Shown: piece after piece, positions 1 through 62,766 of the stretch
Layout: every line of letters starts with the position of its first letter
How positions within the stretch are numbered: the stretch's first letter is position 1
Assembly: GCF_036588685.1 (NCBI RefSeq)
Contig: NC_086382.1
Coordinates: forward strand, 56,668,001 to 56,732,000
Source of the DNA: Mytilus trossulus
Lineage: Eukaryota
Direction: 5' to 3'
Length of the DNA: 64,000 nucleotides
Made by a program: the position numbers and the translations under genes
The notes under the pieces: generated by a model
Databases searched by the model: none
The model's input: only the letters and a program-made list of their open reading frames with translations
What the model was told of the DNA's origin: nothing

Positions 1-39
1 TCAGACCCAGGTTCGTCTACATAAATGTGTTTACAGATG

Positions 40-830
40 TCAAAGGGACAGTTCAACTCAATAGTTCGAAAATAAACTGACGACGCCATGGCTGAAAAAT
101 AAAAATACAAACACACAAACAACAGCACACATGACAACATAAAAAAACTGAAGACTAATCAAGACGTACCCCACCAAAAACTGAGGGTAATCTCGGGTGA
201 TCCAAAAGATTAAGCAGATCCTACTCTACTTTTGACACCCGTTGTGTTGCTCATGTTATTACAAACCAGGTAAAAAGTTTTATCCGGTAGGTCACATTTG
301 TAGTGAAAAGGAAAGTGGATTGTAGGTACAACATAAGGAACATATCCGATACCATCTGTAAAACGGTTATTCCATAACGATCAACCAATTCATGATGGCT
401 TCCGTAAAACTTACAAAGGAATGATTTCAACTTCACCATTCGGAACTCTTGGTTTAATTGATTCCTTATGAACACAAACCATCTATCAAGGAAATCATGA
501 TAGGAAAACACAAGCCCGGGGAAATAAGTTTATTAGGATATACAAACTTCGAATGCAGGCGCTGATGAAATGGTGCTTCATAGAAATCGACAGTTCACAA
601 TTGGGAAGCGGAACTCATCTGTTTTGTCGATAAGTTTTATTTTCTAACCCAACCTCATTGTCAATTTCTAGATATAAGTCAAGATATGAGACAGACTTGA
701 CTGTATCTGTTGTATCCATTATTTCTAGTTCGATGGGATAGATGCGTTCAACATAGTCACCAAAATTTTAATTATTTAGTGAGAGAACATCATATTTATA
801 GCGGAAAGTAAAGTTAAAGAATATTGCTAA
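40..830 (-). mobile_element. Penelope-like retroelement 3' fragment (RT C-terminus plus 3' UTR), degenerate
   Basis: Minus-strand translation SYHDFLDR...NQEFRMVKLKS..CKFYG.HHELVDRYG. Same family as 41428-41781 and 57155-57718. Family call from recalled RT-thumb motifs. Confidence 0.7.
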
Positions 831-1894
831 ATTCTTTCGTTTGGATTTAAGTCTTGTGTAATTATTATACATCAAAACATGGCTTTGAGGATGGATACTT
901 CTCTAGTGTAATGTAAGCATGATTTTATTTAAACATGCCGAACCACGAAGTTTCGATGAAAGCCTGGTGTAATTCAAAACGCCAAAATTAATCTGGAAAC
1001 TATTCTATTGTAAAATAAGCAGTTCAAAAACGATCTGATGTATGGTTGTTTTTAACTAGTATTTGTTTTCAAAAACAGTAGTAGAAAAGCCAAATCATAG
1101 GACGCAGGAGACAAGGACTAGTGTATAGATCATACTTTTTAGTAATTCAAACATGAATTAACCCACACTAGCGCATGGATGCTATTCAGATTTAATTGAA
1201 CTATGGCGGTAACATGGGTTAAAATATAGATGATCCTGAGGTAAATCTAAATTGCAGACTGTATATACATTTAATAAATGCATTCTTCCAAGATACACGG
1301 GTAAAAAATATGCACGTCTGACGCAAATTTCGTATACAAAAGACGTTTTTGTTTAAATAATGCTCTAAATACAAAAGTTATTTGACAATTATAAATTGAC
1401 AATAGAAGAAGAAGAAAAAATATTTATTATTCCAATTAAGGGCCCTTGATGGGCAGCATAACATGTTTACACAAAACAATACATCATGATTTGCAACAGA
1501 AAAACATTTTTTTATAAACCAGAATGAAACATTAAAAAAGTTCAGACAGATGTTAGTATCTTCATTCTATAAAAATGATATACATTTAATTCCAGGCAGG
1601 ATCATTTCCATAAAATCATAACAATTATCATTGTTATTACATATATTAATTTGTTATGAATACATTGTCCTGTTTTACAAAACAGTTTCATATCCTGGTA
1701 TCTTTATTGAGTTTTTATATGTCCATGTTGGGATTGAATCAACTTTTAAAAAGTCTTCTGAGATAGCAAGGTTATCTTGCAATAAGAGTAATCTTATGTC
1801 GATCATTTATTATGACTACATTGTCCTGTTTTACAAAACAAAAACAACAAAAAAGTGTTCTTTGAAATTCATGCTTTTTTTAAATTTTTTTTTG

Positions 1895-2205
1895 TAATTG
1901 CGCCAGACACGCGTATCACCTACAAGAGACAAATCAGTGACGCTCGAATAAAAAAAAGTTAAAATGCCAAATAAATAACGACGATGAAGAGCAATGAGGA
2001 CAAAAAATTCCCAAAAGATTTGTCTATTATAGCTGAGGTAATATCTTCCTGAGGTAGAAAATTCTTAGTATTCCATGGTGGAAATGTAAAATATTGTAAA
2101 CAGTTAATTTATAATTATGCCCATATCAATGATAATTTATGTCGACACAGATGTGCTGACTACTGGGCTGGTAATACTCTAGGGGAATAAAAACTCCACC
2201 AGTTA
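1895..2205 (-). mobile_element. Degenerate retrozyme-like element
   Basis: gcgccagacacgcgtatc...atcagtgacgctcg...gaagagcaatgagga...gtgctgactactgggctggt, homologous to 58014-58230 and 18720-18790. Confidence 0.65.
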
Positions 2206-3325: not shown

Positions 3326-6300
3326 ATGTTTTTGTTTGACTGGTTTATAACTGTATTGCAGTATTTCGGTAGGTTTATTTTAATTTCTATGTTTTCATAT
3401 CTTTATATCATAAGTTATTTATTTAATATAATATCCTATTTGGTCTTTATTGATAAAAACTTTTGAACACACATTTATAAGCTAATTTTTCAATATAGAA
3501 TAAAATAATTTATTTAGCGTACGGGTGAAATTTTTTGTATGCATTTTGAAAAATGAATATGCATATAAAGCAAAAAATCATAAGACAAATTGTTTAAAAT
3601 AGTTATACATATAAATATACGTTGAGAGATTCACTGTTTAAATAGAATGGCACACAGTTCAAAGGAACTAGTTTTTGTTGTATATTATATGGAAGCGCAT
3701 GTTAACACTTCAATCATTAATTTGGCGTTCGTAAATGGATTGCACATTGTATAGTTAACATACTGAAAAATTAAATGGAAAAGGAAAAGGGGGGGGGGGG
3801 GGGGGGGGGCAGGTACTCAATAAATATTTAGAAACTGTTGAGTAAACGTTCAAATAGTTATTGTGTATAGAAAAGCATCGGTTAGTTTTGTTTTACATTA
3901 AAATTATTGTGTGGATTTTGAATGGGATTAATAATTAACTAACGAAAATACCAGATTCATACAGGCTATTTCAAAATGTGATCAATATAATACCTAAGAA
4001 CGTCAAAAACATGTCTGAATTGACAGTGTTTTCAACGAATTATATAACTTTGATTGATAGAATATATACATCGACACATGTGTTAACGCAAAGAATGAAA
4101 ACAAAATATTTGAATGTAGCTCTCGTAAAAAAGCGCTATTTATTAGGAACGCGACTTAATAACAAAAGCGAGGATGTTTAAATACTTGAGGAGTAATAAG
4201 ATAGAAAAGAACTTAAAAAGATTAGCCAACACCAATTATAGGTCAACATTGTCGCAAAATATTAGAATTAAATTTACCAAGTAGAGAGTACACATTGACA
4301 TAGACATTCTAAAGCGCTTCTTCGTCAACTGACATGCTTATTATCTGCTCTGTTTTTCAAGTTTTAAAAACTTTATAGCATAGTTGATGCAGAATGAAGT
4401 TGCAAGAGAAAATGATAGAAATATTATACAACCATGTAACAGTAAACGAAAAAAAGCCTTTTACTTGAGTTCAGAAAGTACAATAATAATTAAATTTCCG
4501 ATTGTAGGTTTCATGAACAAGAAATGCAAATTGCTCATCATAGGACTAGATAATGCAGGAAAATCAACCCTTCTATCGAAGATAAAAGATGGGCGTCTTG
4601 TGCAACATCCACCGACAAATCAACCATGTAAGTTTTTATATATACACAGTATTGCATAGGATGATACCGTCATTTTGTTATGTTTTCCTTTTTATCACGC
4701 CAGATATAAAATTTTATATACAACAAGGGTTCAATGTAAAACGATTATACATCATAATTTTGTATTCATTTACTTTTAGTTTGATTCTTAAGTACTCATG
4801 TATTACTTGTTGAGTCTAAGGACGATTCAGGGCGGATACTTTTGTAACTTGGGTTACTTCTATGTTTGGGATTTTTTTTTTTTTACAAAAACTGGTTTAA
4901 TTGACGTCTTTTGTTGTACTGTTATACCACTGTCCCAGGTTAGGGGAGGGTTGGGATCCCGCTAACATGTTTAACCCCGCCACATTATTTATGTATGTGC
5001 CTGTCCCAAGTCAGGAGCCTATAATTCAGTGGTTGTCGTTTGTTTATGTGTTACATATTTGTTTTTCGTTCATTTTTTTTTACATAAATAAGGCTGTTAG
5101 TTTTCTCGCTTGAATTGTTTTACTTTGTCTTATCGGGGCCTTTTACAGCTGACTATATGCGGTATGGGCTTTGCTCATTGTTGAAGGCCGTACGGTGACC
5201 TATAATTGTTAATGTTTGTGTCATTTTGGTCTTTTGTGGATAGTTGTCTCATTGGCAATCATACCACATCTTCTTTTTTGTATACTTTATATTTCCTTTT
5301 TTACACACAAACAAACGGTTGTGAAGATATACAAAGTCCAGTGAGCAACACCAATACCACAAAGGACGCGATAAAACATTCAGATTTTAATTTGAATGTT
5401 CAAAACATATAAGATTGATATATACCAACAATCAAAAACTAATTACAGGCTTTTGACTTAGAACATTCAAAAACAGAATGAAGCACTGCTTTGTTCAGAC
5501 CATCTATATCTCCTTGCATTGACAACATAAGTAAACTAATATGTTATTCAATTTATTTATAAACCAGGGTCAGAGGAGCTTACGGTGGGTAAAGTGACTT
5601 TCCAAGCATACGATCTAGGAGGACATGCATCAGGTAATTATAACACAGTAAAACCAAAAGCATTATCAAATTAAACCATTGCAAAACAGACCTTTATCCA
5701 CAGGCATCAGGAACACGAATTGGTGTTATGTATTTAAGGGTTGAAGGTTTAAGGAAGAAGAAAAAACGATAGAGCGAAACCAGCAGAGTTGCTAAAATGA
5801 ATGTTCAAATTTTAGATACATAAATGAATCAGATGTCAAATAAAACAGCATGTTTAATAAAAAGCGTTTTCTGTTCCTATCGCTATACTGGGCGATTATA
5901 CTTATTTGTGAATGTTCAACATTGAGTTGTTGCTAATACTATTCTTATATAGTTGTGGTATTTATTCAAACAGCACGACGAGTTTGGAGGACATATTTCC
6001 CAGCAGTTGATGGTATAGTGTTTATCGTTGACGGTTGTGACATTGAAAGACTTCCTGAGGCTAGAGCAGAAATAACTGTAAGTCATTTAATGCTGAAACA
6101 CACACACAACAAAAAAAAAACACCAAACAAATCAGTGAAATTAATAACATTAGCACATACAATCCTGTGTTAACATAGATCTAAAATGATTACAATAATA
6201 AGCAATCTAACATTTTAAACCTGATCTGACCTTTTTCTGAAATCTATCAAAAATAATATGTATCTTTTCCCATAGCACAAAGGGTCCTACGAAACTGTTG

Positions 6301-7614
6301 TTACAGAAGAGGCAAGTAGACATAACGCAGGGAGTCGGGAACCTGTTGTTCAGTGGTTGTCGTTTGCTGATGTAAATGATAAGTGTTTCACGTTTCTCGT
6401 TTTTCATATAGATAAGATTGATGGTTTTTCTGTTTAAATTGTTTTACACTGGTCTTTTTTGGACCCCTTATAGCTTGCTGTTCGATGTGAGCAGAGGCTC
6501 CGTGTTGGAGGTCGTACTTTTAAATATAATCGTTTACTTTATACACGTTATGACTTGAATGGAGACCTGTCTCTTGGCTCTTATACTAAATCTTCTTATT
6601 ATTTTATAAAACTCTGTTTGCCGATGCGCCAAAAACTCGTACATTAAAAGAAGAGAGAAAAAACCGGAGGAAATTGCATGATTTCCAGTCGATGCAAGAC
6701 CGAACCAACAGATAGATTTAGTTAGTAGTTATGGATATTCATTATAAATAATGAGTGTATGAACATCGGAAATACATTTAAATGTCTAATGATATTTTAT
6801 CAGCGTTTGAATCCGCATAAACAGGAATGATTAAACGAGAACATTTACAAATAATGTAGAAAAATAGTTTTAAATTATTATAATCAGATTAACTTTTTAT
6901 TCAGGGTATTCTAACAGATGAAATGGTATCCGATGTACCGATTCTTATACTTGGTAACAAAATAGACAAACGTGGTTGCTATGGTAAAGAACAACTTATC
7001 CAAGAGCTTGGAATAAATATGTACTTATCGGAACACGTAAGTTTGAGTTTGATGTTACAGTAAGGATGATAAAACAGACAGAAAACAATAGGTGTCTTTA
7101 CGTTTTGTGTGCACTCTCATTGACCTACCTTTGATTTCTTATTAATGTTCGTGGGGTGCCAATTTTCGTGGATTTGGTGGATGGGCAGGAAAAGCAATGC
7201 ATTAAAAAGACTCATCATAGAAATTAGGATTAAAACTTTATATTTGCGCCAGACATGCGTTTCGTCTACAAATGACTCATCAGTGACGCTCGATTAAAAA
7301 CAAGTTTAAAAGGTCAAATAAAGTACAAAGTTGAAGAGCAATGAGGACCAAAAATTAAGTTAAGCCAAATATAGTTTACTTAAATACTCAACTACAGCAT
7401 ACATTTTCTTAAACTTTTCTTTGTCTCATTTAAGTTCTGTCTAGTAAAACAAATAAATTCACAAATTCTCCATTCATAGGTAAATACAGAAGATAAATCC
7501 AGCACCACCAGACCATGTACCTTAATAATGAGTAGTGTTGTACAACACATTGGATATGGTGACGGCTTTAGATGGATGGCCAAACATATACAAGAAAATG
7601 ATCGAACTAACTGA
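3326..7614 (+). CDS. SAR1: SAR1-family small GTPase (divergent paralog), 6 coding exons, 199 aa
   Basis: Exons 3326-3368, 4508-4627, 5568-5633, 5974-6077, 6905-7036, 7480-7614 (600 nt), all GT-AG and phase-compatible. Product [37 protein letters not shown]...SEEL...[28 protein letters not shown]...ILILGNKID...[13 protein letters not shown]. It has the G1, DLGGH (G3) and NKID (G4) motifs and the SAR1-type N-terminal amphipathic helix. Confidence 0.93.
4890..5280 (+). repeat. Abundant interspersed repeat (SINE-like or non-autonomous retroelement) in SAR1 intron 2
   Basis: Related copies at about 6320-6600, 15740-15970, 28170-28545, 36440-36858, 60430-60505 and inverted at 56580-56870. They share the end gttgtctcattggc..tcataccacatctt. 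Confidence 0.7.
7245..7291 (-). ncRNA. Minimal hammerhead ribozyme copy in SAR1 intron 5, antisense to SAR1 (element about 7210-7375)
   Basis: gagcguca CUGAUGA gucauuuguagac GAAA cgcaug UC uggcgca. Confidence 0.7.
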
Positions 7615-15590: not shown

Positions 15591-16429
15591 AACACAGATA
15601 TTGTTCAGAATGCATAGTTATAATTTTTTTTTAAATTTATAATGATTTATCATCCTGGTTTGTATATCTTTTTACAAAAATGTATTTATTTTATCTGTTT
15701 TTTTGTCGGTAATGAAAAATTCAAAATCCAGCTGCAAATTTTTGCACATGTCTAAGTCAGTAATCTGATTTTTAGTAGTTGTCGTATGTTTATGTAGTTA
15801 AAATGTTTTTCTAGTTTCTCGTTTTTATATAGATCAGACCGTTGGTTTTCCGTTTGAATGGTTTAACAAAGGCTCCATGTTGAAGACCGTACCTTGACTT
15901 ATAATTGTTTACTTTTATAAATTGTTACTTGGATGGAGAGTTGTCTCATTGGCACTCATACCACATCTTCCCATATCTATATCTATATATATATATATTT
16001 AAATTATTATTTCAATCTAGTAAAAAATAAAATCCCCAAAACACTGAACTTCGAGGAAAATTCAAAACGGAAAATCCCTAACTAAATGGCAAAATCAAAT
16101 GAAAAAAACACATTAACGAATGGACAGCAACTGTCATATTCCTGACTTGGTACAGGTAATATCGTGTAACGTTTGGACACAAATCTTACCAATGGAATAT
16201 ATGAAACAACCTATTGTTGGCATAAGCATTCTATCTAGTTATTCTCATGATGTCTCTTTTAATGACCTGATGCCATTGATGCAAAAGCCGTTTGGTATTC
16301 ATCCCATTTGCACGAGGCTTTATTCATTAACCTTTTCAAAACTTCATTCTCTGTTCAACTGATGTTTTGAATCCACTGTTAAAAAGACTCAAACACATAC
16401 AAACTTACAGCTATCATTTCGGATATTTC

Positions 16430-18658: not shown

Positions 18659-18994
18659 CGTATTAAATTATAAGCCTGGTACCTTTGATAACTATTTACA
18701 CCACTGGATCGATGACACTGCTGATGGACGTTTCGTTCCCGAGGGTTTCGCCAGTTCAGTAGTCATCACTTCGGTGTTGACATGCATATTAATTATATAG
18801 TCATTTGCTTTTTTATAAATTTACTGTTTGCAAAAGAATAAATTATTCGAAATACTAAGGATTTTCTTATCCCAGACAAAGATAACCTTAGCCGTATTTG
18901 ACACTATTTTGATCTGAGCGTCTCTGATGAGTCTTATGTAGACGAAACGCACACCTGGCGTATTCAATTATAAGCCTGGTACCTTTGATAACTA
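18659..18994 (+). mobile_element. Retrozyme-like monomer with terminal direct repeat (300-nt period) and a mutated hammerhead at 18916-18962
   Basis: cgtatt(a/c)aattataagcctggtacctttgataacta at 18659-18694 and 18959-18994. Internal CTGATGAgtcttatgtagacGAAAcgcacACC, with the GTC cleavage triplet lost. Confidence 0.75.
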
Positions 18995-41781: not shown

Positions 41782-42373
41782 TAGACAGATAAACTATTGG
41801 TGTAAAACAGAAGACAATAATTCAACAGCAGAATTTGTTTGAAAAGATAAAGGATTTGGTTTTAGAAGAAAGTCCACGAATGTGTATTTTATAGTAAAAT
41901 ATAGACATTTCAGTATACAGTATAAAACACTTTTAATTAACAAAAATATTATAAGACTTTATTATCAAAAAGATTCTCTACGGCTTAAATAATAAAAGAT
42001 TGCTGCTTACAAGGTTGCTATCATATTCCCCTTTAAAGTATTTTTCTAACGGTTAAGCATATCTTTAACTCATTTATTCCTTTACCATAGGGCTACTGGT
42101 AATACTTTATTTTTGTTTCTGAATTTTCAAAGAGTAATATTTAAATGCTTAAATATACTGACTGTATTTTACCTTTTATTAATTAATAATTGCTATAACA
42201 ACACCTATTGTATTTTATTTGTAGGCATAGATTGAATATATTTTTATCAAATGTTGGCATAGGTTGAAGACATCCATTTATTTCATATACTTGTTGGGTC
42301 AAATTAAATAACTTGCATAGAATGAAATTATATTTTGTGTCACACTGAAACACAAGATTTCTGGTTCATTTTA

Positions 42374-48300: not shown

Positions 48301-51300
48301 CAATTAATGATGCTTTACATTCGATTAAAAGATGATATACCTTTATTTTCACAGCGAGTCCCATGATATCCATGCACACATATACATCTGTAACCACTTT
48401 GTACATTTTGACATGTTCCTCCATTCAAACAATAACACTTAACTGGAATTACTGTAAGTTCGTCATTATAATATAATTATGCATTTAATTCGTATGATCG
48501 ATTTTGATAAAATGCTAGTTTTTTAGTTATGGATAAAATAAGTGGTTAATTCTAAATAAATCTCATAGGATTGTGTGTCACCTTTTGTGTGTTCTTTCAC
48601 GTTGTTTACAGTAATATTAAGGAAGTTGAATCAATTTGAAAGACTTATTTCTTTTTTCTGTACCACCGTTGGAAAAAACAGCAGCTTTTTCATAGATTTT
48701 GAAGTAAAAATTACACTAAATTGTACTCACGAACCAACACGATATATAACGATCCATCCGCAGTGTCTGACCACCGTTAGATTTTCTTGCATGATCGTTT
48801 TCCCCATGATTTGGACATTTATTCGAAAATAATATTGTAGGTATTATAGGATTTTTTGTATGTCCCATATCAAAAAGGTTACCTAGTCGGATTATTCACA
48901 GATTTTACCAATTACCTACCATTAGGCTGTGTTTGTAAAGGATAGCTCCTTGTTGTAAGTGACGGTATTGGTGTTCCTATCATCTGATAATCATTGTTAC
49001 ACAAATTTGCATCACAACATAATAAATGGCTCATTGATCTCTTTTCACTTTCTTCTCGTCGTCCAATTATAGGCAATGAAATATATTGCGAATCACATAC
49101 CTATAAATTCAAAATAGCATCTTTACTTGCCAGTTGCTATGCTGACATTAAAGGTACAATTTTACTGCACCGGATGCGCATTTTGGATAAATTATTTTCT
49201 TTTCAGTATTGCTGGATAACAAAATATCAAAACATCCAAAACAAAAAACAAAAAGGGACACAAACATTTAGAGATGACTGGATAAGAAATCAGAACTTTG
49301 CAAGAGGTAGATCATTATTCCCTCATGCCTATTGTATATTTTCTGACTGTATGCTGTAATACGAGGTTTCGGGTGGGTTTTTTGTAGTCTTGCTCAGTCT
49401 ATAGATTTTTTGTTGTGTTTTGTGTACTAGTGTTTGTCTTTTGGTACGTTTTCGGTTTTTGTCATGGCATTGTCAGTATGTTTTTTACTTTTTAAGTTTT
49501 TGTATTATTAGTATGTTTAGCAAACGAGTGGCTGATTTGTCCATATTTTTTTGGCTGCAGTGGTTGTTTGTTACGAATCAGAAACTTTTACAAAAAAAAT
49601 GAAAAATAACGAATACCGAAGTCCATAATCAAGGACAAAATCAAAAGCTGAAAGACATCAAACAAATTGACAAAAATGGTCAATTCCTTACATGGAACAA
49701 ACATTTTCTTGTTTATAAACTGGGGGATTAAACATGATCTTATAGCTAGCTTAACCTCTCACATAAATTTATGACATTCGCATACAATTCGATTATATTG
49801 TTTGATTATAAAACAAACAGACATAATAGGTAAAAATGTCAAAAAAAGGGGTCCAATTGTCAACATTGTTTTATAATATTAATCACTATACAAACAAACA
49901 AGTGAGAGAAAATTCAAACCGATATTCCCGATAGCTTGCCACTTTGAAAACATTACCCAGTAGCATGTAAACAAACTTATTATCAAATTATTGCAATGTA
50001 AAATAGGACACAGTATGTCCCGTTTTGGTCATATAGCTCTTTGTTTTCTTCCATGGGTTTTAAAAGTTATGGTTTCAGCGTTTCTTATGAAGAATATTCA
50101 AGAAAAGGCTTTTAGGTTTCTTCAGACAGATTTGTAGACAAAGTTTAGAATACTTTATGTTACCGAAACGTTATCTCGTGTTTCCTAAACTACGAGAAAT
50201 TATAACTGATGGTACGGATTGGCATACGGTCGTCGCAATGTATTGAAGTTTGCACTTTGTCATCCCTTGTTTTCAATTTGGTACATGTAGATACCGCATT
50301 GTAAACTCCACAACATCTGTTTACAATTGATTTTTTTTTAATTCTAATGGACTTTGATAATATACTTACATGCTTTTCTTTACAGCCACTGTGATAAAAG
50401 TGCTCTCCAAAATGAATCTTTTCTTCTGTATAGCAAATCTATTCGAAGAATACAAGTTTAATTCTGCTTTTGAAACTCCTCTGATTAAGTTAATATGGCA
50501 ACATTTGTCTGTCATATTGCAAAAGTAATTGTATTGTCTATCAAAAATCGATCAACTTTGCCATCCCTTACTGACCTTGCTAGTTGTCTTATCCTGATTT
50601 AACTCTCCTTTTATACGTTTTTTGTAACTAAGAGCAATTTAATGTAATTTATCTTTTTAAACAATCCACAATTTATCAGTACTATTTTAACCTTTTTAAT
50701 AACCATTATTATTCAATGAATTGCTGCTATATTCAAGGTTTGGAATATAAATCCTGCTTTTAATAGAATACAATCTCAGATTACAGATTGCGGCCGCATT
50801 TCTTTCTAACCAAAATATTGTAAACGTTGTGTTGCGTTTGTTTTTGTTTTCTAACGCTAAAAACGTAGAAACAAATACATTGTTTAATAAGTCTTTACTG
50901 ACACTGTTTGAACTTTCAAAAATGCATGCACATGTTGTTGGTAAACAGATATTTTACAAACGTAGAAACAAAAACTTCGCTTTATCAGGTTGAAGTTAGA
51001 AACAAATGTAGCATTTGAACTAACAAACGACAAACGACAAACTGCAGAAGCATTTCGTGCGTGTGCATAGTTTGTCATAGTTTATGTTAACTTTGCAAAG
51101 GTATGTTTGAAAGAAATGTACAAACCATGTGCGCGCTACGTCGTTTGCATCGTTCGGGTTAAAAAGAAATGCAATTTGCATCATTAAAACTGTCGTGAAC
51201 GTTGTTATCGTCGGCCTCGCTTGCCTTGAAACTCTTATAAACCATACACTATTATACATTTTGTATTACCATTTTACATTTTGTATTACCATAATACATT

Positions 51301-54300
51301 TTGTATTACCATTATACATTTTGTTTTACAATAATACATTTTGTATTACCATAATACATTTTGTATTACCATTATACATTTTGTTTTACCATTATACATT
51401 TTGTATTACCATTATACATTTTGTATTACCATTATACAGCATTACTTCTTTAACGGCTGATGTAGGTTTTGTCTATTCATAGTACAATTATACAAATTGT
51501 TTAAATTTTATGGAAAGCATATATTAAAAACTTGTATATACTAGGCACCTCGAAAGGATCACAGAACGACACTGTATGACACTCGTCTGCTGTTAAGACG
51601 CCTTGACAGCTATAACATATACGTCCGTCATATTGCGTTGTATCTATAGAAAAACAAGGAAAAAGGGAAGAAAATTGAAACGCCAGTATAAAGAATACAA
51701 GATTGTTGAACAAATAAAAATATGAACATACTTGAGAACTATTAGTATAGCTTTATCTCCAAGTATATAAAGTGTTAAAACTTATTTTATTGCGACGCAA
51801 TTTTGAAACAATAAAACTTATCATATATCTATAAACACACATCGTTATATTTTTAAAAAACGCGGTGTATAACATATTAGCAAATTGATCAGTTTTGGGA
51901 AACATCTTTTCGATATTTTGAAATTTGTCAACATGATTGAATACGTCTTCTGTGTTCTAGCTTGTAGTATAAAGGTATAAAATTCAGATTGAATCGTGTA
52001 ATTACACAAACTGATAAATTGAAAAGATCCCGAAAAAAACAATTAATTCTAACCCAAAATAAAGGTAAAAACAATTCAAATCCAGTAGGTACTATTTAGT
52101 GACAGATATGGAAACGCTATATTTGTTTAATTATGAAGATTTCATTCTAAAGTCTTTAATTAAACAAGTTTCTAATTTTTTTCAGGACTCATTTTGCTGC
52201 TTTCAGATTCATGTACATTGTATTTCTTCCTTTTTCTTTCAGTCCTTTAAGTGACTAACTCTGTTTTATCCGAGACGGTATTCATAAAGGGAACATTTTG
52301 ATATCACAAGGAGTCCATGCAAAAATATGAAATAAACATAAAAAAGAGTCTTCTGTAAAAAGACCCTAGTTTTTGGTGGGGTTCGTGTTGTTTATTCTTT
52401 AGTTTTCTATGTTGTGTCATGTGTACTATTGTTTTTCTGTTTGTCTTTTTCATTTTTAGCCATGGCGTTGTCAGTTTGTTTTAGATTTACGAGTTTGACT
52501 GTCCCTTTGGTATCTTTCGTCCCTCTTTTATCACCAATTGTTGCTTTATAAAACAAAATGAGTTCACATATGGAAATAGAACAGACGGAACGATACAGAC
52601 TATTATAGTTAACAAATGGTGAATATCATTATTCCGTTGTTCTTGTTAAAAGGGAAACAGTGTTTTACTTTGATTGTTAGTAAATTAATACATAAATGAT
52701 AATCAAGTCTTTTCCTCTGCCTTGTCTATGAAGTATTTGATAGACTTAGGATTTTCTTGTCAAAGAATGTATTAATTATATGTATTTTGCAAAATCTTTC
52801 GGTATCTTTTTTCTTAAAAGCTCTTAAACTTCGTTCAATATTTTGCCTATTAACATTTTTGGTTCGAGCGTTTCTGTTGATTTATTTGTAGACGAAACAT
52901 AGTGTCTTATTGGAGTTTTGCCACATCAGTAAAAACTTAAGTAGTATGGATATGTCTTTTGTCAAGAGGTAAGGTATTTATTGAATGCTTTTATTTTATC
53001 ATGAACAATAATCTCAAAAAGTTATTGCTCTGAATTAATTTTGCAATAACCATTCGTAGCATATATCAATGATGTGCACCGATGAATTACTATACTATTC
53101 TGATTGTGTGTTATGAACATTGTGGCAGCTATTGTCAAATGATTGAATTACCTTACGCAATAATCGTGCAAAGACGGTAGAACATTTTTATCTTTATATA
53201 ATATTATATCCATCTGATTATATACATGTATGATAACCTATTTTTTTTAAATTGTTGCCTTTAATCTTGGATTTATCAACATAAAGCTTGGAACTTCCAA
53301 ATTTAATCTTGGAATTATCAAGTTTAATCTTGGAATTATCAATTTTAATCTTGGAATCAGCAATTTTATCTTGTGATTATCAATTTTAATTTTGTAATTA
53401 TCAATTTTAATCTTGGAATCATTAATTTTATCTTGTGATTATCAATTTTTATCTCGTAATTATCAATTTTAGTCTTGTAATTATCAATTTTATCTTGTAA
53501 TTATGAACATCAATCTTGGAATTATCAACATTTGTCTTTGAATAATCAAATTTAACCTTGGCATTTCTAATTTTAATCATGGAATTATCGAACATTAATT
53601 TTGGAATTGTCAACTTTAATCTTGGATTTATCAACATTAATCTTGGAATTATCACCATTAGTTTTGGAATTATCAACATCAATCTTGGTATTATGAATTT
53701 TAATCTTGGAATTATCAAAATAATCTAAGAATTATCAACATTAAACTTGGAAATTCCAAATTCCATGTTTTGACCCTCGTTTGTCCGACACTGATTTTCC
53801 GACTTTCATTAACCAAGTAAATTTCTAACTTTTTACCTCTGCTAAACAGTGCACTTCAAGTGTGCTTTACTTTACTTTTTGTCATTCATTAGTATTCCCA
53901 CTATACCAATATTACTTTGGAAAAAAAATAAATAACCAATTTAAACAAAGTCATTTAACTTATTAAAGCAAGAAATGTTATTGGTAGTATGGTGGAAACA
54001 TCAAATATTCAAGCATATTGAAAAAGACCTTTCTTTTAAATCAAGTGTCCTTTGCTATTTCTATTCAATCCCTGATATCAATTTAAGTTATTGTGCAAAT
54101 ATACCATGGATTGTTTTAACTTAACGGGACATTTTCTTCGAGACATAAAAAAAAAATATGATTTTGTTTTGATTAATCATTTTTAGAATCCAATTTGGTT
54201 CACTTTATCAAACTAAAATAAGGAACGACACCGTTGATAAAATTGTTCACTTGCAAGTACAAAATTCGACCTCTTTGAATCCATATTCATGCAACCAACA

Positions 54301-57300
54301 ATTTGACTCCATAGATATAGATGGTCACGCATGAATTAGGAGTGTTCCTTCATTAAAAGAAAAATAGTGTCAAAATTGACAGTGAAACAAAGGTAAACCA
54401 TTTGATGACTGTTTCAATCCACAAAAGCATGTTGTAAGGAATATATCTATATATTTGTGGTAAAATTATTCCTTTGAACACCTAAACCATTCTCCTAACA
54501 TTTTGACTGATGATACTGGCGGCCGGATTTGTCATAAAATTAGAAAAAAAATCTCAAAATCTACTTATTATATATAAGTTAACAATTATTTTACAAGGTT
54601 TAGTTTGATGCTAGTATATAAGATTTTAAATTCATTGATTTTTTCCAATTGTATCACATATTTTGAGTATAAATCCCGAACGCAATTTTAACGAGACTCA
54701 ATCATCAGAAGAATACATGCTAAAGTATGATTTTCTATTGAAACGAGATCAAGAAGGGAAGACTTACTTACAGCATCATTTTATAATGATTTTATAGATT
54801 TTATTCCATTTTTGGTTTGGAAGATCACAACAGTTATTTAACGGATCGTGTAAAAAAAAACTATGTTGGTATTTTACATCAATGTTTTGTTTATGCATAT
54901 ACGTTGGTTATTTTTATTTATGAGACTTTGAACTAATGTGTTTTCTTCTAAAGTCTTGATAAGCGAGGCGGAAGATACCAAAGTGATATTATAATCCTAT
55001 AAAAAAAAATATACAGAAAATGAATAAAAGACAAACAAAAGTTTCAAAGCACTAAATGAAAACTTAAGACTACGAACCCCACAAACTTCGGAGACTTCTC
55101 AAGTGCTTCACAAGGCTCAAAAGATACAGCTCCACATGTGGCACCAGATTAGCTTAACAAATAACCATGTGTTAATTCAGTCGGCATAATGTTTTCGTAA
55201 TGTAATCCGTTGATGTTTACGATGGACGTTATATGAACCGCGACAATGAAATCAAACTAATTCATGTTATTGAAGTTGGTCCTCCCATTTTCGGATTTTT
55301 AGCTAATGATATAAGATAACTTACCTTCTCCACATCCATATGTATTACAAAGATTGGAGGAGCAACATTGGAAACAGGCAAGAGAGCTATTAAATTCATC
55401 TGTATTGGTGTGACATGTCTGTTTATGGAAACAAAAGAACTGTCATGTTAGTATTATTTAGTATTGATAATTTAAAGGGTCGCTAGCTTCGAGTATATAC
55501 AAAATATAAAATATATTTGTTTTTGTTCAATTATTTATGCAAGTGGAATAGTGAAATTATATATCGCTTTTAGGAAACAGTATGGTTCAATGTTGTCATA
55601 TTAATCTAAGGAACATTGAGGATGAATTATTCACTTGCAAGTGAATCATTCGACTTCATTGAATTCCTGCTCATGTGAACATTAATTTAACACCTTAGCT
55701 AGATAAAGATATCGCATGCAGTGTGGGTGTTCAATTATTCAAAGGAAAAGAATCAACATCGAAAATGAAACAAAGGTAAATCATTTGATTGATTGATTCG
55801 ATCCACCAAAAAAATCACTTATACATGTCAAAACATATATTTAATCTATAATATGAAATTAAAAAGACATGGAAAAACTCGAAATGCACGAGTCTGATAC
55901 TGTCTATATCTATATTTATGTTTATATCGCTGATATAACAATCGAAGGTCCTAGAGGGTCAACTCGACAGTTCAACAGAACGCGTCTAGATTACAATACA
56001 CACAAAACGAAGCTATATTTTATCGAGCCCAGGCGTGGTATAATGTATATTTTAGTTTTTTTTTTTTATAATTTGATAAATGCTTTGCATTGTTATACAT
56101 CAAATATGAGAATTTGAGAAAAATCGATGAAAATATGATGTGTATATTGCGGAACGAATATCTGCTAATGAAGTATTATTTCACGTTCTTTCAATTAATG
56201 TTGTAAACTTGCTGTTGAGAATAAATATACGTGATATATAACATAAGATCGAATGTGTATGTTGTTCTTTTTATAATGCATTAACATAATATGATGGTTT
56301 TGTACATTTATACAAGCGAGAGAATAGCCTTGCTTTAAAACTAAGTTTAATCAACGATTTTTAAATAAGAAAATGCCCGAACCAATAGATATAATATTGG
56401 CATGAGTGGAAATGATCGAGACAACTTTCAATCCTAGTCACAATGTGTTAAATTATATCCTCATATTCCATAGATCGGTCTCAAACACAGAGCCTTGTCT
56501 CACAGAACAGCAAACTATAACAGACTTCAATCATGACTTGTGTAAAACCATTTAAACTGGAAACTTAAGGGTCTATAAATATAGGAAGATGTGGTATGAG
56601 TGTCAATTAGACAACTCTCCATCCAAGTAACAATTTATAAAAAAAAACAATAAAGGTCAAGGTACGGCCTTAAAAATGGTGCCTTTGCTCACATCGAACA
56701 GCAAGCTATAACGGGACCTAAAAAATACTAGTGTAAAACCATTCAAGCTGGAAAATCAACGGTTAAATCTATAAAAAAAAAAACGAGAAATGAGAAACAC
56801 TTATGAACCCCATCAACAAACGAATGCAGCGGGTTTTAACTTCTCAATATGTACCAACCTTCACCCTAACCTGAGATTACTAGTATAGTGTAAATTCACT
56901 ACATCGAAGGACTCACTATAAAATATCAATTGGAATGGCCTAACGCAATCAATAGACATGTTTACAATAACAAGAGAACATTCATAAAAGGAATAGATTT
57001 GTTTTATGACACAATGTAAAACAACATAAATAAAACAAAAATAGAAAGGGGACTGAGATGCACAACAAAAATAAGAAAGACATCTATGGACTTCGACAAA
57101 ATGCCGTTGAATAATATAACGTACACAGGTAATTAAAAAAGAAGTTTTGTAAAATAGGGACGAAAGATACCAAAAGGACAGTCAAACTCATAAATCTAAA
57201 ACAAACTGACAACGCCATGGCTAAAAATGAAAAAGACAAACAGACAAACAATAGTACACATGACACAACATAGAAAACTAAAGAATAAACAACACGAACC

Positions 57301-60300
57301 CCACCAAAAACTAGGGGTTATCTCAGGTGCTCCGGAAGGGTAAACAGATCCTGCTCCACATGTAGCATCCGTCGTGTTGCTTATGTGATAACAAATCCGG
57401 TAAATAGTCTAATTCGGTAGGTCACATTCATGAAAGGGAAGGGGATGGATTGTAGTTACGACGTAAGAACATATCCGATTTCATTTGTGAAACGGCGTCC
57501 GTAAAATTTACGAAGGGATGATATCAATTTCCCTATTTGGAACTCTTGGTTTAATAGCTTCCTTGTGAGCAGCAGCCCTCTATCAAGAAAATCATGATAG
57601 CAAATGCAAGCACGGGAATATCGTTTCAATTGGGAGATATATACGCCGTATGCAGGTGCTGCTGGGATGTTGCTACTCAGAAATGGAAAGTTCACATTTG
57701 GAAAGCTGAAATCATCTCTGGAAATTGTAAGGAGTGCATAGAGTTCAAAAATATATTTAAAAAAATAGATAAATTTATAGTTCAGAGTACGAGAACAGAA
57801 GTCATAATCTATCGTTATGCTAAATACCTATCAAAAAGATGGTATATATATTTATTTAAAAAAAATAATGAGGCGAGATATAACACAAAATAAGTAAACA
57901 TTGAATATAAAAAATACCATGGCAACACAAAGACGCAAATAAGAAACGAAAGACAAACAGCAATATACATACAGCTGAATATAATTATCAAAAATACCAG
58001 GATTATAACTTAGTACGCCAGACGCGCGTTTCGTCCACATAAGACTCATCAGTGACGCTCATATCAAAATATTAATAAAGCCACACAAGTAAAAAGTTGA
58101 AGAGCATTGAGGATCCAAAATTATAAAAAATTGTGCCAAATACGTCTAAGGTAATCTATGCCTGGAATAAGAAAATCCTTAGTTTTTCGAAAAATTCAAA
58201 GTTTAGTAAACAGGAAATTTATAGAAATGACTGTCCCTATGGTATCTTTCGTCCCTCTTTTATATACCATAAAATGAATCAAATATCTCATATACTTTAT
58301 AAGAAATGTTGATTTTTTTTTAAATATATGAGATATCTCATTTCCGTTTTAAGATATCTTATGTATGTAGTTTATACGATGTCTTATATAATTGATTAGA
58401 AATCTTATAAAAAAAATCATATAAGATATCTTGTAATTTATAGTATAACTATGTAAGACATTATATTAAACTATATGAGATAACTTATAATATACATAAG
58501 ATATCTGATGAACTATGTAAGAGATCTATAAGATATCTCATATTATATATGAGATATCTTATTTAATATTATCTATAAAATATCTTATATACTCTTTCTT
58601 TTATAAGATATCTTATTTAATCTTTCTTTTATCTCATATGATATCGTATATAATCTGTTGAATAGATATATCTGATATTATCTTTCTTTTATAAGATATT
58701 TTCTATAATTTATCATATTTATAAGATATCTTCTGAATTATATTAGCTATATTACAAACTATATAAGATATCTTATAAACTATATAAGATATCTTATAAA
58801 CTATATAAGATATCTCATGAATTGTACAAGATATCTTATTAACTATATGTAAGATATCTCATGAATTATATAATATATCTTATAAACTATATAAGATATC
58901 TTAGAAAGTTGATAGTTATCTTGAGGTTAGAGTAAAAAGTAAAACGGCTTGCCATAAGCAATACTCAATCAAGGAAATTATGGTCGGGAATGCAGGCTCT
59001 GGAATATATATACTTAATTTGCAAAAGTTTTGTTTTCAACATTTACATATTCTACATGCTTCTTTTTGTAACTTCATGGGGTGTAAAAGAGTTGACCGAA
59101 GTTCATTCTACAATTGTACGCATGGTCAACGCTTTTACAACCCTATGTAAAATTCTCAGCATAATAAACCTTATTGCTATGAGTAAATATTGTCTACTCA
59201 ATTACTGGTAGTATTGGCTCTCTTACTGGGATCGTCACTTTTTTCCTAAATCATGTACACCAAAAAAAATATTCTACAGGATCAACATTCTCGTTATGTA
59301 CTCACGTTTGGAGTCATACATCCGCTTTTGTAGATTATCTCCCCTGTTTTGTCTGTAATTCGCTCAACACCACATATCTGAAGGAAACAATGTATTTATA
59401 ATATATTGCGGTTCAGTTCCAGACGAGGAATATAAAGTTATTCTAAAGATAATATCATAACAATTTTGTTCTGATATATAAAAAATGTCATATCAAATAA
59501 ATCATTACTCACAAAATGAAATGAGGTCGCAAAGTAACTCGCTAGAAAGAAGCAAACATCGATAACCATAATATTATAGTCTATTTTTCAACGTCCGACT
59601 GTAACGCCTAATCAAACATGTTAAAAAAATCAATCGAAAAGTAACGCAGTTCACGTAAGGAATGAAAAATACCTCGATCGAATATTTATAAGAATGACTC
59701 ATACACCAAAGCTGTTATAGTAAATATAAGTAAAACAATACCTGATTATCAGAGCATTCTTGGACGTGTTCACAAAATCGTGGATGTCGAATCCCAGGAC
59801 AGTTGAAGCATGTCAGAGCTAGCGTTAAAATTAAAAACCAGTTTGATATATTATATACGTATCCTAGCTGAATTCATCACTTTCTAATATAATTAGGAAT
59901 ACAATTTTGCACGTCAGACTCGCGTTTTGTCTACAAATGATAATATAATAGAACTATTCAGCTTTTTTTTAACCTATCATGTTGCCAGAACTTTTCATTT
60001 TAGCTATTTACTATTTACTTCAAATGTTTTAAATAGCTTGATACTAAACAGTAGCTTGCAATATTTGTATTCGTGTTGGATGATAAAGGAAAGGAGTGAA
60101 CATTAGAGATGTTTAACCACGAAGATAGACATTTACAAAAATAAATTCATTTTACATAGTTTTAAAGACATCAACAATGTTTTTATGGTTTGAGATATAA
60201 AGTAAAATACCAAAAATACCAAAACGATAAGTTTTTTTTATCAATTTGCAAAATTAAAAGCTTGAACAAATGAATAAGAAACAACTGTCATATTCCTGAC

Positions 60301-62156
60301 TTGCTGCAGGAATTTCCGTATGTAGAAAATGATGAATTCAATCTAGTTTTATAGCTAGCTAAACCTCTCACATGTATGCCAGTCGCATAGAATTTCATTT
60401 TATTTACAACAATAGGTTAGCAAAACAAACAGATGTTAATGTTTGTGTCATTTTGGTCTTTTGTGGATAGTTGTCTCATTGGCAATCATACCACATCTTC
60501 TTTTTTATATAGACATAATAGTTAAAATTGTCAAACATTGACGTTCTGGATACAATTGAACTTTGTAAACATGTATACCTGAACAGCTAACTGCCTGTAA
60601 AAACAGCAACACAAGGTTACCTGAAAAAATGTGTAGAATAATTGTGAATTTCAAATTGAAGTCGCTAAAAATGAAACTACGGTTCAAATATGAATTAAGA
60701 TGATTAAGTATATTTCTATAAGTAATTTTTTGTCTCAAAGATAGTATTTTTTTTTATATTTTTTCAAATAAATTCATGAATTTAACTTCATCATTTGGAA
60801 CTCTTGGTTTAATAGTTTCCTTTTGATTAGCAACCCTGTAACAAGAAAATCATAATTAGAAATACAATCCTGTACTGATCCCGATGTTGCATGAATGCCT
60901 GACATTATCATGTGACGTGTTTTTGCAAAATGAAACTGGACACGGTAAAAACGGATGTATTCTTATATTAATTGCTTCAAAAGACCATAGTCTGTCACAT
61001 GGTATGTGTTGTCATTTAAGCGATATGTGTTTAACATTTACATAAACGGGAGGTTTGGCTTGCAATAAACCAGGTTCAACCAAAATTTGTTCTTTAAAGG
61101 TCCTGTACCAAGTCAGGAATATGACAGTTGATATCAAACAGTTAGTTTCTATGCTACTTATTTAATGTGTTAAACTGAAAACTCGGCGATTCATCAATCT
61201 AGTCTCTTGTACATACCATTGTGCCGTCATATAGCTAAGCTTTTACCGGCTTCAAATATCAACATCTGAAGTCAAGTGCTCGGAGCACAAAAAGCATGCT
61301 CGAAATATGAAATCCAGCATTTTGATTGGTTTATTTTGGAGTATGAGTATAAAAACTGAGTCGCAATTTTTATGACATCATGGCCAGGTATTTTAAATCT
61401 TTTGTACGCTTCGGAATGTAACACCATTTGAAGGAAAAGAAGATCCTCGGGAGAAAGTTGAGAAGTTTCGTATATTATTTGAGAAATTATATACATGTTT
61501 GTTCGTTGCAATGGTTGAACACACATTGCTATATCTTTGGCCGTCATCAATGACCTTACTAATTTATAATGGATATGTCGTAATATTGTCTTATGATGAT
61601 GGATACGCCATTGAAATAAATACAAATTTAGAATCACTTTTTTGTTTTAATTGTATCACACTCTGTGAAATATGATACGTGAATTAGCTCTGCATGCAAA
61701 AACAAAGCAACAGACCGCAACCATAAGTGATATAACTTTTTCGACATCAAAATGCAGTTCAACGAGTTCTATAAATGCACATAAACTTTAGTAACGCATA
61801 CTCCGTCTTTCTATATGTATTGCAATTACCAACTTAACGGTTAAATAAAACAAAATGTTTCTCGGTAAACGTGGTCAATAACAATACTTAAAAAATAAAA
61901 GCATCAATTGTGTAGGCTATATGACTTACCTCTTTATAAATATGATATATTAGTAAGGCATACAATTTAACGATCATTAGCAAATCAATGGTGTGTAGTA
62001 GAGAAATTAAATAAGGGACATTCAGTACTTATCAAAGCAACTCCCTTACAAGAAAGGAACTTTTTTTTCGAATAATGAATTCTCTTCGAGTGCCTTTCAA
62101 AAATGGTTGTTCCACTCAGGTTTGGTCTTTAATAAACAAAACTTACCGACTTGCAT
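42374..62156 (-). CDS. Secreted multidomain protein: signal peptide, 2 three-finger/LU(Ly6-uPAR)-like domains, P/T/S linker, EGF-like domain, IgGFc-binding protein N-terminal-type domain; about 660 aa
   Basis: Exons 62156-62147, 60620-60579, 59818-59742, 59377-59306, 55418-55325, 51643-51549, 50438-50370, 49100-48920, 48451-48341, 43605-42374 (1983 nt, all GT-AG, phases consistent). Starts MQVGNLVLLFLQAVSCSA|LTCFNCPGIRHPRFC; LU-like ends CCSSNLCN and CCDANLCN; EGF CYCLNGGTC...YRCICVHGYHGTRCE; last exon DLTGTLVTSSAPVFVISGSNC...FGLWVYG...GYGYPGG. The first exon is the least certain. Confidence 0.82.
44969..45015 (-). ncRNA. Minimal hammerhead ribozyme copy with C3->U core change (element about 44938-45126)
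   Basis: gagcguca UUGAUGA gucuuauguagac GAAA cgcgcg UC uggcgua. Confidence 0.75.
47424..47641. mobile_element. MITE with TA flanks (Tc1/mariner-like)
   Basis: ta|ctgtaaaccaactaattttcgcg ... cgcgaaaataagttggtttaca. Confidence 0.75.
47682..48142. repeat. Local direct duplication of about 150 bp
   Basis: ataagctagag..agaggaggg...ggcggtgttgtcgtagaagttag...gaatcaaatcta at about 47686 and 47997. Confidence 0.8.
51251..51438. repeat. 20-bp minisatellite, about 9 copies
   Basis: (attatacattttgtattacc)n. Confidence 0.95.
52364..52529 (+). mobile_element. Solo 3' terminus of the Penelope-like element
   Basis: Reverse complement of about 57155-57317. Confidence 0.72.
53261..53762. repeat. 21-bp minisatellite, about 24 degenerate copies
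   Basis: (aatcttggaattatcaatttt)n. Confidence 0.92.
57155..57718 (-). mobile_element. Penelope-like retroelement 3' fragment with full 3' terminus
   Basis: NFPFLSSNIPAAPAYGVYISQL.RYSRAC..YHDFLDRGLLLTRKLLNQEF. The terminal sequence also occurs alone at about 14426-14570 and 52365-52529. Confidence 0.78.
58014..58060 (-). ncRNA. Minimal type I hammerhead ribozyme, intact core, within a retrozyme-like element at about 57984-58231
   Basis: gagcgtca CUGAUGA gucu uaugu ggac GAAA cgcgcg UC/ uggcgua. Canonical core, 4-bp stem II, palindromic stem III, and stem I formed by gcguca/uggcgu. Confidence 0.85.
58280..58905. repeat. AT-rich degenerate tandem repeat with palindromic core taagatatctta
   Basis: (tataagatatcttataaacta)-like units. 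Confidence 0.8.
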
Positions 62157-62766
62157 TATTCTTTAACAAGTGTTTTCTAGATATGTTTCAATTCATATGA
62201 CGCAAAAGTTTAATCTCTGATAAACAAAACTAACCGACTAGCATAATATGGCATTGAAGGTTAAGATAGTTTTGGTCTAATCTTTTTGTGTCACGATTTA
62301 CTATAATCAGGTGATACACAGCTACATTTTGCATGTTTATTTTTGCAGTACCTTGAAGTACCGAAACGTACTTATTAAATAATGTACTTGGAAGCTATGT
62401 TGCTTTATGTTAGAACCATACTTTCATAGCTATTGTAGAAATGGAATTGAAAGTTGAATGTAACAGATTTATCTTTTAATGTGTAGTATATTGTTGGTGC
62501 AACAACTGTTCTGAAGCATTCAAGTACTTTTGAAGGTACCAGGATTATCATTTGATACGCCAGACGCGCGTTTCGTCTGCATCTTTCTATAATGGGGTAT
62601 GAAGTTTTGGAGGTACATCAATTTTTCATTTCATATTTGCTAAAGGGTGACAATTTAAAGGAATATGTATGTTGATATTAAATGTGTGAAGTCTATTTAC
62701 CAGGTCTGTGTAGGTCTCTATATTGTTCGTAAAATTTTGACTTCGAATACCTCCATATTTTACTAA

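Follow-up and report, generated by a model that had tools for sequence, protein, structure and literature searches.

The window analyzed here is a 64,000-nucleotide stretch of the Mytilus trossulus genome (contig NC_086382.1, positions 56,668,001 to 56,732,000), in which an earlier note had described a dense population of minimal hammerhead ribozymes next to fragments of a candidate helper retroelement. The question raised by this locus is what these elements are and which enzyme copies them. We conclude that the dispersed copies are the known mussel retrozyme and that a Naiad reverse transcriptase (RT) likely copies them, starting at a stem-loop that both elements share, a reading that draws on sequence comparison and to which we assign a probability of roughly 70%. 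The retrozyme itself is already known, and the copies in the window are ordinary relics; what appears to be new, judged by the literature searched, is the fixed insertion ends and the stem-loop that links them to Naiad.

Hammerhead motifs and retrozyme copies in the window

A hammerhead motif or its remnant is present at each of the 15 sites previously listed without strand, and all align to the type I hammerhead, although the alignment of one is weak. The motifs at 18916, 19555, 20194, 52866, and 37924 are on the plus strand; the minus strand carries the majority. The Rfam model Hammerhead_1 matches 58015–58058, 44970–45013, and 13347–13390 with E values of 1e-4 to 9e-3, all slightly below the gathering score. 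Allowing up to 14 mismatches over 46 nt, a pattern scan gave 9 matches in the window versus none in 640 kb of shuffled window, and six remnants that we checked had alignment scores of 43–86 against a background 99th percentile of 38. The catalytic core is intact in only three of the nine recognizable motifs.

The retrozyme hammerhead has a helix I of 6 bp, a helix II of 4 bp, and a helix III formed by an 8-nt palindrome, in agreement with the proposed type I fold with a loop-less palindromic stem III. The label “minimal,” however, does not apply. Minimal hammerheads (min-HHR) are those without helix III, with a long helix II and a short helix I, whereas 6 bp, 4 bp, and a short palindromic helix III describe the canonical metazoan form (PMC4209133), which is the form of the window motif. 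Covariation of stems I–III, on which the earlier note had staked its reading, is present between families: 95% of 238 cells are paired, compared with 14–48% in slid controls, and 6 of 14 pairs show double changes, counts that come from few families and related sequences. The statement that these elements cleave as dimers was too strong as worded, since dimer cleavage was demonstrated for axolotl and a cloned mussel repeat self-cleaved in vitro (published kobs of ~0.1/min); the palindromic stem III, still kept, favors the dimer.

By sequence, the window motifs belong to the published Mytilus non-LTR retrozyme with units of 350–362 bp, and such elements were, as the earlier note stated, known from mussels. 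The M. galloprovincialis retrozyme (Cervera & de la Pena 2020, PMC7229834; 375-nt sequence in PMC4918200 Additional file 11) agrees in hammerhead and body with the subfamily A2 copies at 7204–7389 and 13305–13464 when compared by eye. Both mussels have ~350-bp AT-rich, non-coding tandem units, two hammerhead families, and abundant RNA; here the GC content is low, at 0.365–0.389, and the longest ATG open reading frame is 34–75 amino acids, marking the unit as non-coding. Exact 35-nt cores number 11,014 (A1) and 3,628 (B) in the genome, 14,642 in total, with none in reversed-pattern controls, and extrapolation from 800 kb gives ~80,000 motifs, far above the ~5,000 copies published (PMC7229834). 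Head-to-tail arrays of 350–362-bp units occur elsewhere in the genome, in keeping with the units of 150–450 bp with one hammerhead each that define metazoan non-LTR retrozymes, and one array comprises at least 73 units. In the window itself, retrozyme units are single or partial, and the sole tandem is a local 639-bp triplication.

By one criterion, the window contains 9 motifs, 7 insertion events, and 3 intact cores, while 80 scattered 10-kb stretches give a genome reference of 4.0, 3.0, and 2.3 per 64 kb. A frequency of one copy per ~5 kb is reached only if remnants are counted. The “dense population” amounts to a borderline enrichment of ~2-fold (bootstrap P of 0.059 for motifs and 0.048 for events) with the 200 kb flanking the window at the genome average, and we rejected local enrichment on these grounds. 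The copies in the window are mostly broken, dead relics rather than active units.

At the left edge, the 3′ half of a family-A hammerhead (1–24, minus strand) belongs to an element that runs on outside the window as a decayed ~1.2-mer. Further minus-strand copies are a weak remnant of a hammerhead 3′ half at 1313–1345, which has the lowest score of those checked (43), a near-full A2 monomer with a destroyed catalytic core at 1890–2202 (78% to the intact unit), and two 5′-truncated A2 copies. That at 7204–7389 stops at the fixed 3′ point described below, with intact core letters and a stem II of 3 bp; that at 13305–13464 has an intact core, and a paralogous stretch at ~24440–24460 without this copy provides an empty site. 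Both have lost the stem III palindrome. On the plus strand, an A1 monomer with tail (18659–18997) has a ~54-nt internal deletion, the stem-loop shared with Naiad (18700–18762), and a hammerhead in which C replaces U16.1. It is partly included in the triplication (18771–20693, plus strand), whose ~99% identical units copy part of the retrozyme (19411–19633 and 20050–20271) and also carry an unrelated ~240-bp dispersed repeat. The motifs at 18916, 19555, and 20194 are one insertion, tripled by a local duplication unique to this place, and do not form a retrozyme array. We considered the 639-bp repeat as a longer retrozyme and rejected this, as it is confined to this locus, carries a mutated hammerhead, and has borders that agree with neither cleavage site nor fixed end.

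A family-B monomer at 37679–37997 (plus strand, 89% to the intact unit) stops at the fixed point and has its core GAAA changed to GAAT, and an old family-B remnant with a destroyed core is found at 49147–49316 (minus strand, 64%). A young, 5′-truncated A1 copy at 44936–45126 (minus strand, 98.4%) stops 40 nt beyond the cleavage site and has core C3 changed to U. An old family-A remnant at 52726–52898 (plus strand) stops within the hammerhead. Two minus-strand remnants retain the hammerhead 3′ half, with part of the tail at 59892–59940 and with the tail at 62533–62582 (92%). Two minus-strand elements had been overlooked, namely a retrozyme body fragment with a decayed stem-loop and without a hammerhead (28794–28948) and a remnant (45632–46083) of family C, a third family of hammerhead repeats that gave no match to the shared stem-loop. 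The only copy in the window with a fully intact hammerhead (58014–58060) is a 5′-truncated A1 copy at 57981–58231 (minus strand, 89%), with predicted cleavage between 58021 and 58020.

Insertion ends and the stem-loop in common with Naiad

Retrozyme insertions terminate 32–49 nt past the cleavage site, directly before the stem-loop. None of 107 3′ ends (31 unselected and 76 from selected loci) lies at the cleavage site, and 24/31 unselected and 62/76 selected-locus ends fall within a 14-position span, which begins 12 nt ahead of the motif reference point and reaches 1 nt beyond it. Free 3′ ends coincide with the unit end in 75 of 119 cases and 5′ ends with the unit start in 8 of 115, a polarity of fixed 3′ and variable 5′ ends with P about 1e-69 versus uniform ends. 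The motif start shows no significant excess of 5′ ends (8/115, P 0.11), and we also rejected the cleavage site as their position (7/115, P 0.13). The insertion ends are not set by the ribozyme. They are T-rich and track the motif in three retrozyme subfamilies and in Naiad N1, although the upstream sequence differs. A shared flank word of at least 8 nt, which would indicate a target-site duplication, was seen in 3 of 36 young retrozymes and 1 of 37 N1 copies against a null of 3–4% (3.3% for retrozymes). No duplication is present at the single empty paralogous site either, where 5 nt (TATTT) match at the 3′ junction. In the published Mytilus retrozyme description, a duplication of >4 bp is optional (“when present”).

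N1 is the Naiad family whose RT remnants occur in the window, and these are the fragments in which the earlier note plausibly saw a candidate helper. By domain order and motifs, N1 and its relative N2 are Naiad Penelope-like elements (PLEs). The RT family of the window shares with published Naiads (Craig et al. 2021, PMC8557442) an N-terminal GIY-YIG domain, CxC and DKA motifs, and a C-terminal RT, and it forms 3.37-kb tandem units without a canonical hammerhead. Pfam places GIY-YIG at residues 183–273 of the 1056 amino acids of N2, with the RT C-terminal in the same open reading frame; N1 is 53% identical to N2 across this domain, and a 782-residue piece of N1 had no Pfam match. The CxC and DKA motifs are present in N1/N2, and their unit lengths are 3370 bp and 4277 bp, respectively, in partial tandems, in keeping with a Naiad body of 3.4–4.4 kb. 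N1 has open reading frames of ~1000 amino acids in 5 of 20 loci, and young Naiad copies with open frames of this size exist. The hammerhead core pattern was not found in N1 and gave two loose minus-strand matches in N2, and Rfam gave no hammerhead in loci L205 or L183. N1 inserts in the same pattern as the retrozyme, with a fixed 3′ end, 5′ truncation, and no clear target-site duplication. In the window, N1 remnants lie on the minus strand at 41–836 (RT C-terminus and 3′ UTR, 82.5% to the intact unit, adjoining the retrozyme piece at 1–24), 41414–41782 (RT C-terminus, 94%), and 57151–57719 (RT C-terminus to the fixed 3′ end, 90%), and a young N1 3′ end lies on the plus strand at 52364–52529 (99.4%).

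The stem-loop that follows the fixed 3′ end of N1 matches that of the retrozyme at 87% over 63 nt (E 8e-18), in an identical position relative to the fixed end. A retrozyme-only profile matches N1 at E 3e-18 to 3e-17, with 13/13 such matches preceded by N1’s own 3′ end, and N2 at E 7e-6, where the stem-loop opens the element and carries compensatory changes. Among 15 loci of the canonical-PLE or non-Naiad GIY-YIG groups, 118 kb in total, the best match had an E value of 0.05. The shared fold is seen in A1, A2, N1, and N2 (z of −2.6 to −3.4) and is weak in B (z of −1.5). In these few families and related sequences, 4 of 12 pairs changed on both sides, and compensation of this kind speaks for a structured RNA and against a promoter in duplex DNA. 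Rfam gave no credible match to a known RNA family. The homology is limited to ~63 nt, an extent that common ancestry or a common promoter would explain just as well as present-day use; BLAST detected no tail similarity upstream of the fixed end, where a TGGTRYC word is a weak lead. Chimeras are not enriched either, as 4/115 retrozyme 5′ ends touch a Naiad end versus 1.3 expected, with two of the four being nested insertions. An inverted 34-nt N1 3′ terminus at 58228–58261 (plus strand) abuts the truncated 5′ end of the 57981–58231 copy, and this junction occurs once in the genome; it is suggestive but unique, and we rejected chimeras as proof of co-insertion.

RNA and the candidate copying enzyme

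Retrozyme RNA made up 292–879 reads per million in three raw runs from other animals, biased ~3:1 toward one strand in two runs and without strand bias in run X24. Unit-length wrap joints numbered 391 versus 74 and 373 versus 69, in which short reads cannot separate circles from tandem transcripts, and these reads showed no end pile-up at the cleavage site. RNA reads break off at the insertion-end points of the retrozyme (1892–1895) and of Naiad (1322–1325). N1 body RNA is scarce, with a depth mostly below 17 and no clear strand bias.

Because insertions stop just before the stem-loop shared with Naiad, the Naiad RT likely starts there. Tandem arrays elsewhere in the genome would be the source of the RNA seen in related animals, transcribed on the hammerhead strand. 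The hammerheads would cut multimers into monomers, with two palindromic stems III probably pairing during cleavage, and a host RtcB-type ligase would close the circles, as published for M. galloprovincialis. By analogy with Poseidon_Ac, whose RT starts internally at an AC-rich stem-loop downstream of the hammerhead, whose genomic ends mark the start sites, and which does not need hammerhead cleavage in vitro (Frangieh et al. 2024, PMC11167929), the Naiad protein may dock on the stem-loop, nick AT-rich DNA, and initiate cDNA synthesis a few bases 5′ of the stem. From there, copying would run back across the tail, hammerhead, and body, and further rounds may follow if the template is a circle or multimer. 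This route would account for the observed polarity of fixed 3′ and variable 5′ ends and for the head-to-tail arrays, with single copies decaying afterwards as in the window. Poseidon_Ac is an autonomous canonical PLE acting on its own RNA, whereas use in trans by a non-coding circle and a Naiad is our proposal.

The main competitor, which we consider unlikely, is that a canonical hammerhead-bearing PLE of the Neptune or Poseidon type mobilizes the retrozyme, with the Naiad-like motif a relic of ancestry or a common internal promoter. Such PLEs are favored as helpers by PMC7229834 and by Li et al. (2026, bioRxiv 10.64898/2026.07.22.740005); the genome contains intact canonical PLE open reading frames, as well as canonical PLEs with hammerhead-like motifs of their own, and PLE promoters overlap the pLTR/body boundary. 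However, none of the canonical PLE loci examined has the stem-loop motif or the retrozyme tail at its own end, the ends follow the motif in both the retrozyme subfamilies and N1 despite differing upstream sequence, and the compensatory changes speak against the promoter version. A helper closer than Naiad may exist, as our survey comprised two Naiad families and a few canonical PLE families, several without a full 5′ end. A SINE-like route, in which linear RNA running from the motif to the T-rich fixed point is primed at its 3′ end and circles are a by-product, would explain the T-rich ends and the TATTT match at the empty site. We regard it as improbable, as hammerhead-strand RNA largely continues through the fixed point (depth 1315 to 970 in run X21; 572 to 256 for the opposite strand), 5′ ends do not cluster where the motif begins, and N1’s own 3′ end precedes all 13 of its starts. 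Least probable of all is satellite DNA spreading at the DNA level by unequal crossover, circular DNA, or Helitron capture with the hammerhead as passenger. Long arrays exist and the 639-bp triplication is a DNA-level event, but the end polarity is what reverse transcription would leave behind and covariation has kept the ribozyme fold, which largely refutes this explanation for dispersed copies; it may still account for long-array growth.

Copying by a Naiad RT agrees with Li et al. (2026) in that retrozymes are treated as non-autonomous PLE partners. Their vertebrate retrozymes derive from PLE pseudo-LTRs, with no mollusc sampled, and have in common with Xenopus PLEs the pLTR that bears the hammerhead, whereas here the common part is the body start of a hammerhead-free clade. 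As in a non-autonomous partner, the retrozyme shares insertion-end-adjacent sequence with the autonomous N1, yet it carries a hammerhead and Naiads do not. The portion of PMC8557442 available to us describes non-autonomous Naiad partners for Chlamys only, and the words “stem-loop” and “hairpin” are absent from its main text. PMC7229834, in the portion available to us, reports neither fixed insertion ends nor the Naiad motif, and its supplement may bear on the ends. The stem-loop link was not found in the literature searched, and the supplements of PMC7229834 and the 2026 preprint may bear on its novelty.

It is somewhat better than an even bet that retrozymes are mini-Naiads that kept the start stem-loop, took a hammerhead from elsewhere, and form a stable circle on which the Naiad RT starts internally and rolls around, writing arrays. 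To the question of which RT spreads animal retrozymes and how it primes on a circle without a 3′ end, left open in the literature we drew on, the fixed ends and the common stem-loop offer a candidate enzyme and place its start to within ~10 bases. A start by the Naiad RT at this stem-loop would also give hammerhead-free Naiads a candidate initiation element and would support the suggestion of hammerheads parasitizing PLEs (PMC8557442). If the mini-Naiad reading is true, hammerhead and RT-recruiting element are separate modules, and a ~65-nt stem-loop might suffice to turn any circular RNA into a substrate for an RT related to telomerase. Family C would illustrate such modules, as it combines a B-like hammerhead with different ends and possibly another helper. 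The stem-loop motif was not matched in the 425 nt of family C scanned, and its copies end elsewhere, at TA repeats in two of three near-full copies. B-like hammerheads near loci L190, L195, and L197 had made a canonical PLE a candidate carrier of the retrozyme hammerhead; we rejected this, as they belong to family C rather than to a PLE terminus, and the terminus of the canonical PLE at these loci has its own hammerhead-like motif.

Retrozyme copies in the window and the genome

The hammerhead repeat of the window is almost certainly a member of the already known mussel retrozyme. All 15 places at which the motif had been read carry it or a remnant, most on the minus strand, and the Rfam type I hammerhead model matches three copies at E values of 1e-4 to 9e-3, slightly below the gathering score. 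Using a 46-nt scan, we detected nine motifs in the window versus none in 640 kb of shuffled sequence. The catalytic core is kept in three of these (7245-7291, 13347-13392, and 58014-58060), and only the motif at 58014-58060 combines an intact core with a perfect stem III palindrome. The youngest copy (44936-45126) is 98.4% identical to an intact unit and has lost C3. The plus-strand copies at 18916-20238 represent one insertion, tripled by a 639-bp local duplication that did not recur among 40 scored candidates. The 639-bp unit also includes a dispersed repeat of ~240 bp (18997-19240 and two duplicates), which is abundant and has no relation to the retrozyme.

The earlier note described a dense population, at about one copy per 5 kb. 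The nine motifs do exceed the 4.0 per 64 kb found in 80 scattered 10-kb stretches hand-picked blind to content, but the bootstrap P value was 0.059, and the flanks gave 2.9. We consider the window an ordinary stretch of a known element. Extrapolation from the same sample gives about 80,000 motifs genome-wide.

The hammerhead lies in a non-coding repeat unit (GC 37-39%) of 355 bp in subfamily A1, 362 bp in subfamily A2, and 350 bp in family B. Elsewhere in the 1.30-Gb genome, the units form head-to-tail arrays, one of which spans at least 73 units. The exact 35-nt core occurs 11,014 times for A1 and 3,628 times for B, and the reversed patterns 0 times. For Mytilus galloprovincialis, the consulted portion of PMC7229834 gives ~5,000 hammerheads of two families in 350-390-bp repeats, together with plentiful circular RNA and a self-cleavage rate of ~0.1/min. 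By eye, a published 375-nt mussel sequence (PMC4918200 Additional file 11) matches A2.

Ribozyme structure and RNA

Covariation is seen in all three hammerhead stems, with 95% of 238 cells paired and double changes in 6 of 14 pairs, in 17 chosen copies representing families A, B, and C (a third hammerhead repeat family), a set with few independent events. Slid controls were 14-48% paired. Of the 166 hammerheads passing the helix filter, 151 have an 8-nt palindromic stem III. Four different palindromes occur, one altering even the central pair, which is unable to form within a single hairpin. Because the palindromes vary, central pair included, we favor a stem III in which an 8-bp helix would join two ribozymes. 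The label "minimal" given previously does not hold, as the mussel motif is the canonical metazoan form under the definitions in the available text of PMC4209133.

In three raw RNA runs from other animals with the same species label, placed on the monomer rather than on particular window copies, retrozyme RNA reached 292-879 reads per million at ≥88% likeness. Assuming the usual library orientation, two runs favor the hammerhead strand by about 3:1, and the third is unbiased. Many reads contain a joint that returns by exactly one unit, and these joints favor one strand (391 vs 74; 373 vs 69); they fit circles or tandem transcripts, which short reads cannot tell apart. No pile-up was present among the read ends listed for the three runs. 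Reads from other animals stop at the same points as the genomic insertion ends.

Insertion ends and a motif shared with Naiads

None of the 107 element-ending hammerheads ends at the cleavage site. Rather, 86 of the 107 hammerhead-bearing ends (24 of 31 in the unselected set) fall within a 14-position span where a conserved motif begins; an independent BLAST count places 75 of 119 free 3' ends at this fixed point. The ends lie ~39-45 nt (A1), ~41-49 nt (A2), and ~32-38 nt (B) past the cut. Retrozyme 5' ends are scattered, the unit start accounting for 8 of 115 by BLAST. Target-site duplications show no excess (3 of 36 elements). In the single empty-site comparison, between diverged paralogues, the copy at 13305-13464 has no duplication; ~11 bases of the target are lost, and the 3' junction shows a 5-nt match.

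The fragments of a candidate helper retroelement proposed earlier are reverse transcriptase (RT) pieces of a family with features diagnostic of Naiads, a type of Penelope-like element (PLE). This family (N1) has ~30,000 first-look candidates, and its full copies form 3370-bp tandems encoding an N-terminal GIY-YIG, CxC, DKA, and C-terminal RT, the Naiad diagnostics according to the part of PMC8557442 seen. A profile built from retrozyme motifs alone matches N1 at E values of 3e-18 to 3e-17, directly after N1's own fixed 3' end in 13 of 13 matches. Retrozyme and N1 are 87% identical over 63 nt, where the likeness ends. N2, the second of the two Naiad families compared, has the motif in the same position (E 7e-6); its version includes an additional hairpin, and its closing stem differs by three double changes. 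The fold is alike in all five families (A1, A2, B, N1, and N2), weakly in B. No Rfam family matched the motif, and 15 loci grouped as canonical-PLE or non-Naiad GIY-YIG, some without a full 5' end, gave a best E value of 0.05. Because family C has a B-like hammerhead, differing ends, and no motif match within the 425 nt scanned, our data suggest that the motif, not the ribozyme, marks the insertion end.

One PLE RT begins within its RNA at an AC-rich stem-loop, and genomic ends mark its start points, with hammerhead cleavage dispensable (PMC11167929, the portion available). By analogy, we infer that Naiad RT would use the same internal start on retrozyme RNA. Naiad protein would bind the retrozyme stem-loop, and its RT would start a few bases upstream and copy around a circle or along a multimer. 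Two results count against Naiad as helper: retrozyme-Naiad chimeras are not enriched, and Naiad body RNA is sparse. The shared stretch could instead be a promoter or a relic. The retrozyme is known, and the Naiad link is a testable lead on its helper. The literature searched gave no retrozyme-Naiad link, which supplements, Repbase entries, or subscription papers may contain. Among the papers listed, PMC8557442 and bioRxiv 2026.07.22.740005 mention both terms; the part of the latter consulted ties vertebrate retrozymes to hammerhead-bearing pLTRs.

Neighboring features

At 17 of 47 motif matches in random stretches and the window, retrozyme body lies downstream with no element upstream, a raw count that would place many of the 5' truncations within the stem-loop or at its edge. 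Pieces 71-81% identical to the N2 3' end (14173-14351, 16023-16163, 26410-26772, 38575-38758, 49619-49911, and 60213-60431) are, by sequence, probably further Naiad families.

Family C is present at 45632-46083 and in five other examined stretches (L190, L195, L197, L225, and L248), with a spacing of about 490 bp in L190. Its stem III palindromes are other than those of B, and it ends ~375 nt past the cut. Some copies end at TA repeats, and three adjoin TA-targeting canonical PLE insertions. L190, L191, and L195 hold a canonical PLE with a 901-aa RT-then-GIY-YIG element, whose 3' end has a hammerhead-like motif without helix III, with a CCGAUGA core, ~75 nt before the end.

The copy at 13305-13464 lies ~15 nt past an apparent splice donor. 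Exon-like pieces for small cysteine-rich peptides occur at ~13470-13640, ~24450-24690, and ~32910-33220 (minus strand), and the stretch at 12.7-14.0 kb is a paralogue of that at 24.0-25.0 kb. The window also contains a 414-aa open frame (42374-43618, minus strand; Pfam IgGFc_binding, E 6e-39), an exon-like piece of an Arf/Sar-family GTPase (4384-4659, plus strand; Pfam Arf, E 1e-9), and AT-rich minisatellites of 20-21 bp (51251-51438, 53260-53752, and 58260-58910).
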